A DNA stretch of 17,460 nucleotides from an uncultured archaeon. GTDB taxonomy: Archaea > Thermoplasmatota > Penumbrarchaeia > CAZUZU01. The stretch spans positions 1 through 17,460 of the forward strand of contig CAZUZU010000051.1 in NCBI GenBank assembly GCA_964624865.1, in the 5' to 3' direction. Both the position numbers and the translations under genes were made by a program. The notes below the pieces were generated by a model, which saw only the letters and a program-made list of their open reading frames with translations, ran no database searches and was not told the DNA's origin. How positions within the stretch are numbered: position 1 is the first letter of the stretch; each line of letters begins with the position of its first letter. Below, in pieces: positions 6,003-7,169 of this stretch.

Positions 6003-7169
6003 ATGAGAGATGTAGCAATAATTGGTGTGGGCATATCAAAGTTCGGCGAGCAGTGGGAAAAGTCACTAAGGGAAATAGGAATAGAGGCGGGCGTCATGGC
6101 GATAAACGACGCCGGTATCACTGGCAACGACGTTGAGGCATTATACATAGGCATATCCTCGTCAGCGAATTTCGCGTCGCAGGAGCATATAGCTCCCCTT
6201 ATTGCCGACCAGGTGGGGCTGGCGAAATGGAACGTTCCGAGCACGAGGATAGAGGCGGCTGACGCATCGGGCGGGGTTGCGTTACGACAGGGCTTCTTAT
6301 CCGTGGCCTCGGGCATGAACGATGTCGTGGTGGTGGGAGGGGCGGAGAAGATGTCAGACCTTACCTCCACCGAGATGACGGATGTCATGGCCTCCACCGC
6401 AGACCAGGAATGGGAGGCGTTCTTCGGCGCAACCCTTCCCTCGCTGTATGCTATGATGGCAAGACGTCACATGCACGACTACGGAACCACGAGGGAACAG
6501 ATCGCCCACGTTGCGGTAAAGAACCATAGGAACGGCGCACTGAACCCCATGGCACAGTACCGGAAGGAGGTTAACTTGGACATGGTAATGGGATCCGATA
6601 TGGTGGCCGATCCCCTAACTATGTTCGACTGCGCACCGATAAGCGACGGCGCCGCGGCCGTGGTGTTGGCCTCCGTGGACAAGGCCAAGAAGTTCACCGA
6701 CCATTTCATAAAGATTTCCGGCTCGGGCCAGGGGTCTGACAGGCTTTCCCTGCAGGAAAGGAAATCCATCACAACTATGGAATCCACCCGGAAGGCCGCC
6801 AGAGACGCCTTCGAGATGGCCGGAAAGAAGCCCGATAATATTGATGTTGCCGAGGTCCACGATTCATATACTATCGGTGAGATCATGGCCATCGAGGATA
6901 TAGGGTTCTTTGAGAAGGGAAAGGGGGGTATGGCGATTGAGCACGAGCTTACAGGATTGCACGGTAAGATCCCGGTGAACCCGTCCGGCGGCCTGAAGGC
7001 AAGGGGCCATCCCCTGGGCGCCACCGGAATAGCACAGGTGGTCGAGCTCACCCTTCAGTTGAGAGGTGCGGCGGATAGGAGACAGGTCAAGGGTGCCGAG
7101 GTAGGCCTGGCCCAGAACATAGGCGGGACCGGGGCCACTGCGGTTGTTCACATATTGGAGGTGATATGA
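6003..7169 (+). CDS. Acetyl-CoA C-acetyltransferase (SCP2-type thiolase) homolog, with Asp at the expected nucleophile position (388 aa)
   Basis: Thiolase-fold motifs are present: '...[34 protein letters not shown]', '[16 protein letters not shown]' as the HDCF-like loop, and 'RGHPLGATG'. The C-terminal CxG cysteine is Asn, which is typical of SCP2-type thiolases. The position normally occupied by the nucleophilic Cys, in C-A-S-G, is Asp87, codon gac at 6261-6263. The whole protein has a single Cys. GAGGTGA lies upstream of the ATG. Confidence 0.85.
   Translation: [388 protein letters not shown]

Follow-up and report, generated by a model that had tools for sequence, protein, structure and literature searches.

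Can the thiolase of an archaeal mevalonate operon lose its catalytic cysteines and still be kept, and if so, for what? The question is raised by a 17,460-nucleotide stretch of contig CAZUZU010000051.1 (assembly GCA_964624865.1, an uncultured member of the Thermoplasmatota), referred to below as the window, in which genes for an HMG-CoA synthase (HMGCS; HMG, 3-hydroxy-3-methylglutaryl), a thiolase-fold protein (open reading frame (ORF) 6003–7169) and a DUF35 protein follow one another. Archaeal membrane lipids depend on the mevalonate pathway, and the thiolase/HMGCS/DUF35 complex is thought to let HMGCS pull the unfavourable thiolase step. Judged from its alignment with characterized enzymes, the thiolase-fold protein of the window is probably inactive as a thiolase. 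The explanation favoured here, to which we give an even chance of being right, is that it is a thiolase-dead yet indispensable structural and CoA-binding subunit of the HMGCS complex, acetoacetyl-CoA being supplied from elsewhere.

Query residues 1–385 are aligned with residues 1–388 of the Methanothermococcus thermolithotrophicus thiolase (PDB 6ESQ_A/6ET9; phmmer E 1.6e-112). Within this full-length match, a 14-residue segment around Asp87 pairs gaplessly with RVEAACASGSLALR of that chain, so that Asp87 stands where that enzyme has Cys85, its acetylated nucleophile according to PMC6392133. The nucleophile column is Cys also in PDB 7YVY and in the zebrafish SCP2-thiolase (PDB 6HSJ), of which 'NNNCSTG' pairs with 'EAADASG' and 'HDCF' with 'HDSY' of the query. 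The loop with the acid/base Cys ('EVHDCFA' in 6ESQ_A, 'ELHDCFS' in 6HSJ) is aligned with query 'EVHDSYT'; because HDCF thus falls on HDSY and the nucleophile on Asp87, both cysteines required in an SCP2-type thiolase (the nucleophile and the acid/base Cys of HDCF) are lost. By these alignments, the departure from a canonical thiolase is larger than was stated in the initial annotation of this DNA, which had placed Asp87 at the nucleophile position and the only Cys of the 388-residue protein in 'FDCAP' (C210), both as found here, but had taken 'FDCAP' for the HDCF loop. Its counterpart in the M. thermolithotrophicus enzyme is instead 'MHCSP', and in 6HSJ it is 'LQCCP'; the real motif is H286-D287-S288-Y289.

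Other catalytic residues are present. The His of the HDxF motif, which is defined and described as essential for activity in PMC12960953, is kept (H286-D287, with x Ser rather than Cys, and Phe replaced by Tyr), as is the His of the GHx motif (G335-H336-P337); N372 falls on the Asn of the 6HSJ segment 'HNIG', in agreement with the earlier reading of an SCP2-type Asn at the CxG position. C210 is conserved in Cys-type and Cys-less classes alike; as a candidate substitute nucleophile it was rejected, being equally invariant in Cys-type enzymes and aligned with a pantetheine/lid loop rather than a catalytic one, with the acid/base Cys lost too. Two relatives (P0024, P0069) keep the nucleophilic Cys yet have HDSF, and PDB 7YVY has HDAF; because these three keep the nucleophile without the second Cys, the latter would be dispensable in the archaeal family or able to be lost first. 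In profile searches, the window protein scores 552 bits against PRK06064 (cut-off 420) and 557.7 bits against the equivalog model NF053570, under its cut-off of 600. The latter cut-off is missed by all Cys-less forms (558–582 bits) and also by one Cys-type relative (P0112, 587.5 bits; range of Cys-type relatives, 587–638 bits), so that the two classes cannot be told apart by automatic naming.

That Asp87 stems from an error of sequencing or assembly, or from a decaying pseudogene, is scarcely credible; its sole support is that the loss of a catalytic Cys is improbable a priori. The same GAC at codon 87 is present in a 2-kb contig of an independent Logan assembly (L001, run SRR31818008), in which the thiolase gene has 90% DNA identity and 95% protein identity with that of the window, differing at 10% of nucleotides, and has matching neighbours (HMGCS 3' end upstream, DUF35 downstream). 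Between the two copies the synonymous divergence (dS) is 0.43 and the ratio of nonsynonymous to synonymous divergence (dN/dS) is 0.066, against medians of 0.098 for pairs of Cys-type thiolases and 0.088 for HMGCS; the Cys-less gene is at least as constrained as its Cys-bearing relatives and HMGCS. The frame is full length and aligned end to end with 6ESQ_A, and dozens of relatives have D, S or G in place of the Cys. An error, one of the options of the initial annotation, is excluded by the second copy, by the dN/dS value and by these relatives.

The close homologues all derive from metagenome-assembled genomes (MAGs) of uncultured Thermoplasmata/Thermoplasmatota, mainly from sediments; among the GTDB species representatives, which do not include the species of the window, the best thiolase match is just 66% identical. 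Of the best 120 protein matches, 74 have Cys in the nucleophile column, 23 Asp (the query being a 24th), 17 Ser and 6 Gly. In the merged non-redundant set of 194 homologues, 141 carry Cys and 53 carry D, S or G. The close relatives thus do not all have Cys; Cys in all of them had been named beforehand as the sign of an error. Complete or large assemblies with Cys-less forms are CP070836.1 (Asp), CP070629.1 (Ser) and GCA_046761005.1 (Gly); Cys-type sister genomes are CP070712.1, CP070724.1 and CP070798.1. Among the best 150 representatives of 50%-identity clusters, 143 are aligned at the nucleophile: C, 103; S, 12; D, 10; G, 7; P, 5; N, 3; A, 2; E, 2; that is, 41 without Cys.

In a neighbour-joining (distance) tree, from which the catalytic columns were left out, the query lies within a basal clade that lacks the Cys and comprises about 36 sequences with G, D or S. 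The 13 sequences of a second Asp cluster (D2) have 83–89% identity to Cys-type neighbours and only about 60% to the query; an isolated Asp form (P0093) and an isolated Ser form (L023) have 89% and 86% identity, respectively, to a Cys neighbour. By Fitch parsimony, the nucleophile column has changed 12 times. At position 87, Cys is encoded by TGT or TGC, Asp by GAC or GAT, Gly by GGA, and Ser by TCC, TCG or AGT. Each Asp origin therefore took two substitutions, the number given in the initial annotation, and there are at least three such origins (P0093, D2 and the basal clade); Asp is the commonest replacement.

Further positions differ between the classes. In the 141 Cys-type sequences (pairwise identity down to 58%), F145 is found in 137, S211 in 139, C288 in 138, F289 in 141, H336 in 141, H371 in 140 and N372 in 141; the query carries L145, A211, S288, Y289 and Q371. 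P0093 has F145Y alone; in D2, S211A comes on top in 10 of the 13 sequences, and certain D2 members also show C288S and F289Y; L023 combines F289Y with H371Q; sequences of the basal clade show L, I or M at 145, Ala at 211, Ser at 288, and Tyr or Phe at 289; the Gly forms have N288 and, in five of six, H336Q. Position 211 is Ala in nearly all Cys-less relatives. At the level of the alignment, the secondary changes (F145Y/L/I/M, S211A, C288S/N, F289Y) recur in the same directions across independent lineages of Cys loss. S89, D209, C210, H286, D287, G335, P337, N372 and G374 are fixed in the Cys-less proteins.

Part of this evidence weighs against a subunit that is only structural. Motif positions are conserved at 13 of 16 sites in the Cys-less clade, against a background of 146 of 371 (p = 0.0012), and at 15 of 16 in the Asp forms alone (p = 3e-5), so that the pocket is conserved beyond what a pure scaffold needs. 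The two-step change from Cys to Asp, with at least three origins and the same follow-ups (F145Y/L, S211A, F289Y), looks directional rather than like decay. A second thiolase was absent from the flanks of all 86 loci, as searched with tblastn over up to 10 kb on each side (flanks only).

The same observations can be taken to favour a Cys-independent condensing enzyme, the main rival explanation, which we nevertheless think unlikely. Asp87 would serve as the mixed-anhydride acceptor of the acetyl group, or, together with His286 and His336, as the general base of a direct Claisen/aldol reaction of the citrate-synthase kind, and the operon would be self-sufficient from acetyl-CoA to HMG-CoA. Carboxylate-anhydride chemistry on Asp or Glu is known from class I and class III CoA-transferases. 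In its favour are the repeated, independent arrival at the commonest replacement, two nucleotide changes away from TGY; the retention in Asp forms of H286, D287, H336 (23 of 24) and N372; the hydroxyls that the convergent follow-ups F145Y and F289Y bring near the site; and the flanks free of a second thiolase. On the other side, sister lineages with Ser or Gly fill the same operon slot, the Gly forms with Asn at 288 and without His336. The shared function of the clade can for that reason not need a nucleophile at position 87. Moreover, the acid/base Cys288 is lost too in the window protein, literature searches found no enzyme of the thiolase superfamily with an Asp nucleophile, and MsTLP1, likewise Cys-less, is without thiolase activity. 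A non-canonical mechanism, as proposed in the initial annotation, thus has some support from the recurrent Asp and the conserved pocket, and is opposed by the Ser and Gly sisters and the loss of Cys288. Slightly less probable again is the specific version in which several Thermoplasmatota lineages would have converged on a cysteine-free thiolase, with Asp87 as anhydride nucleophile or as general base with His286/His336, aided by Tyr hydroxyls at 145 and 289. If true, no earlier case of a Claisen condensation based on a carboxylate would precede it in the thiolase superfamily, and the operon would still lead from acetyl-CoA alone to HMG-CoA.

The Ser and Gly forms are also what leads back to the thiolase-dead subunit. 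From established thiolase chemistry, with Asp at the acyl-accepting Cys and HDSY for HDCF, neither an acetyl-thioester enzyme intermediate nor the usual acid/base Cys would be available in the window protein, and in the Gly forms the residue itself indicates that no nucleophile is possible at 87. Because Gly, Ser and Asp forms occupy one operon slot and the Gly forms also lack His336, their shared function is most simply non-catalytic. The partners are complete. The HMGCS of the window has its tetrad intact (E81, 5164–5166; C113, 5260–5262; H235, 5626–5628; N267, 5722–5724), this E-C-H-N tetrad is kept in every locus examined, including those with Asp and Ser thiolases, and the DUF35 protein keeps its CxxC...CxxC zinc ribbon (C21/C24, C35/C38). 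A comparison of HMGCS and DUF35 for compensating changes gave few lineage-specific differences, none of them convergent. The features expected of a pseudoenzyme subunit are accordingly present together: C87D with C288S, a dN/dS of 0.066, and intact HMGCS and DUF35; the conserved pocket would be compatible with some residual function. Of the options listed in the initial annotation, the pseudo-enzyme or scaffold within a channelling complex is the best supported, with both Cys lost, the gene constrained, and translational linkage to the intact HMGCS and DUF35 genes.

Why such a subunit would be retained is suggested by work on related complexes. According to PMC6392133, the CoA in 6ESQ is contacted by residues of all three subunits, and the literature describes thiolase and DUF35 as the assembly core of the archaeal complex. 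PMC12960953 reports that acetyl-CoA acetyltransferase (ACAT) is insoluble and HMGS inactive when each is expressed alone, and that a fused CoA site lies at the HMGS–ACAT interface. The subunit may therefore be retained since HMGCS depends on the thiolase/DUF35 core and on the three-protein CoA site. The conserved remainder of the pocket (S89, D209, C210, H286, D287, H336, N372) suggests that it probably still takes the pantetheine/acyl end of a CoA thioester, and it could bind and hand over acetoacetyl-CoA that comes from another enzyme, for example a paralogous thiolase/DUF35 pair or beta-oxidation. Asp might recur because its carboxylate keeps the buried negative charge, formerly of the Cys thiolate, that faces the active-site histidines; the Gly forms would then have dropped both charge partners (H336Q).

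The features of the window are collected in Table 1. The order HMGCS-thiolase-DUF35 is found in 78 of 81 related loci. In the window, a GGAGGTG-like ribosome-binding site precedes each downstream gene (thiolase and DUF35), with Shine-Dalgarno-like GGGGAGGTG upstream of the DUF35 gene. The Cys-less forms examined fill this same slot, frequently with overlapping stop and start codons; an Asp form (P0010) and a Gly form (P0067) lie in HTH-HMGCS-thiolase-DUF35 operons with such overlaps. One exception is L008 (10001–11599; CP070629.1, a 3.58-Mb Thermoplasmata chromosome), with a Ser-form thiolase and DUF35 and no HMGCS within 10 kb; here the Cys-less thiolase/DUF35 pair is uncoupled from HMGCS. 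An HMGCS of CP070629.1 was not among the best 120 matches listed for the window HMGCS query. Neighbours of the L008 pair are PurL, a dTDP-sugar epimerase and PKD-domain proteins.

Table 1 Features of the mevalonate operon in the window and catalytic positions of its thiolase-fold subunit.
Feature	Position	Strand	Evidence or remark
HTH_3 (XRE-type) protein, 232 aa	4213..4911	+	Pfam HTH_3/HTH_31; candidate regulator, recurring operon neighbour
Archaeal HMG-CoA synthase (HMGCS)	4924..5991	+	TIGR00748 570 bits (cut-off 353); 6ESQ_I E 1.1e-143, full length
Shine-Dalgarno-like GAGGTGA	5990..5996	+	Overlaps HMGCS stop codon; 6 nt 5' of thiolase ATG
Thiolase-fold subunit, 388 aa	6003..7169	+	Intact ORF; 6ESQ_A E 1.6e-112; both catalytic cysteines gone
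Codon 87 GAC (Asp)	6261..6263	+	Nucleophilic Cys position; CxS motif here DAS
Codon 145 (Leu)	6435..6437	+	Phe in 137/141 Cys-type relatives; Y/L/I/M after Cys loss
D209-C210-A211 of 'FDCAP' (208–212)	6627..6635	+	Aligned to 'HCS' (6ESQ_A) and 'QCC' (6HSJ)
True HDxF motif H286-D287-S288-Y289	6858..6869	+	Aligned to 'HDCF' of 6ESQ_A and 6HSJ
H336 of GHP motif (G335-H336-P337), kept	7008..7010	+	Alignment
Q371-N372	7113..7118	+	371 is His in 140/141 Cys-type relatives; N372 at classical CxG Cys position
DUF35 scaffold protein	7219..7620	+	Pfam zf-ChsH2 and OB_ChsH2_C; 6ESQ_E E 1.6e-36; zinc ribbon and OB fold

The HTH_3 protein is encoded immediately upstream of the operon. Of 86 loci, 43 have a homologue of it next to the HMGCS-thiolase-DUF35 genes (8 on the upstream side, 35 on the downstream side), and homologues stand beside the operon also in loci L082 and L084; the protein could be a regulator devoted to the mevalonate operon. 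Further upstream in the window, an SPFH/Band-7 protein with three C-terminal zinc ribbons (2957–4120, +) is encoded by a gene that overlaps by 4 nt the preceding 255-aa ORF (2193–2960), which has a weak likeness to the LIMLP_15305 family. ORF 55–1899 (+) is an archaeal ATPase_2/AAA_14/DUF234 gene with a TTG start; positions 1001–2000, inside this ORF, have a GC content of 0.40, against about 0.52 elsewhere, and may be foreign or mobile DNA.

If the thiolase-dead subunit is real, acetoacetyl-CoA would come from another source and the structural and CoA-binding role of the complex would have outlived its catalysis, so that the case would serve as a natural experiment on the reason for the complex; with the other outcome, a cysteine-independent condensation mechanism would exist. 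Of the close homologues retrieved, about one in four may be mislabelled where the annotation and metabolic reconstruction of Thermoplasmatota MAGs call the gene 'acetyl-CoA acetyltransferase'.

Known systems bear on a last explanation, that the protein has been repurposed for another CoA-thioester reaction: retro-aldol/aldol cleavage as in Ltp2 and Sal, malonyl-CoA decarboxylation as in KSQ ketosynthases or TbSLP, or acyl transfer as in PhlC and MucB. We hold it to be improbable. Pairs of thiolase-fold and DUF35 proteins with rewired sites are known (Ltp2, Sal, PhlC, MucB), TbSLP has weak malonyl-CoA decarboxylase activity according to the literature, the pocket is still conserved, and Cys-less relatives are common among the cluster representatives (41 of 143 aligned). 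Against this, operon, intact HMGCS and positional orthology to Cys-type thiolases are all unchanged, and no new pathway genes came alongside Cys loss in the loci examined. KSQ and chain-length-factor ketosynthases have their active-site Cys replaced and are kept in a complex with an active partner; the replacement in KSQ types is Gln, with decarboxylation of malonyl-ACP, whereas the window family has Asp, Ser or Gly and CoA-thioester substrates.

Ltp2 and Sal share with the window protein an SCP2-thiolase-like fold without the thiolase Cys pair and a DUF35 partner, which in their case is a domain of a hydratase. Their partner and pathway are different, however, and their catalytic Tyr, which serves as the base, lies in a YDHF/YDCY motif (PMC12329534), where the window protein has His286 (HDSY); models of lipid-transfer proteins remain far under their cut-offs (PRK08256, 251 vs 436; PRK06059, 241 vs 424; PRK07937, 93.5 vs 419). 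The analogy with Ltp2 aldolases drawn in the initial annotation was for these reasons abandoned. PhlC and MucB show the opposite pattern, in that they keep an acetylated Cys and have lost the HDxF His, and their partner HMGS is devoid of the E-C-H-N tetrad (PMC12960953); the window protein has kept the HDxF His but not the Cys, and the tetrad of its partner HMGCS is intact.

Thiolase folds without the nucleophilic Cys were known already (MsTLP1; ST0096 of S. tokodaii, PDB 4YZO; Ltp2/Sal), as were complexes with one dead subunit (PhlA, MucA, PfHMGS). Thiolase chemistry needs acylation of the nucleophilic Cys, and MsTLP1, with Gly at that position, has no thiolase activity (PMC3406046). 4YZO is aligned over its full length with the window thiolase (E 1.5e-71), with Ser in the nucleophile column, HDMA for HDCF and 'LYEYTP' for 'FDCAP', and is a possible structural template for the Cys-less forms. 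MsTLP1 and ST0096 are stand-alone paralogues, whereas the window protein corresponds by position to the thiolase of the mevalonate pathway, as its orthologue; a further difference is that TLP1 is a monomer with an additional domain at its C-terminus. Five cluster representatives (P0172, P0214, P0230, P0234, P0253; 498–539 aa) have Ser in the nucleophile column, HDAF, and a C-terminal extension of about 130 aa, without a Pfam match in the three scanned (P0172, P0214, P0253); these may be TLP1-like two-domain proteins.

No description of Cys-less mevalonate thiolases in Thermoplasmata was found in the literature. New here, as far as the literature searches reach, is an archaeal mevalonate-operon thiolase that is repeatedly and convergently without its catalytic cysteines, with HMGCS intact. 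Its nearest characterized counterpart, the M. thermolithotrophicus thiolase (6ESQ/6ET9, NF053570), is a full-length homologue of equal length with the N-terminus MRDVAIIG and the same operon partners, and both proteins have the His residues of HDxF and GHx as well as the N-x-GG segment; the window protein differs in Cys85 to Asp87, HDCF to HDSY and 'HCS' to 'DCA', and in falling below the equivalog cut-off. For the thiolase-dead subunit favoured here, the closest parallels are PhlACB, MucABC and the P. fluorescens ACAT/HMGS-DUF35 complex, which share the three-protein architecture and in which a subunit without catalytic residues (PhlA, MucA, PfHMGS-DUF35) is retained (PMC12960953) and needed for assembly or activity. 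In those complexes of secondary metabolism, it is the HMGS-like subunit that is dead, with the Cys of the ACAT kept; in the window, a primary archaeal mevalonate operon, the Cys of the ACAT-like subunit is lost and the HMGCS tetrad is intact.

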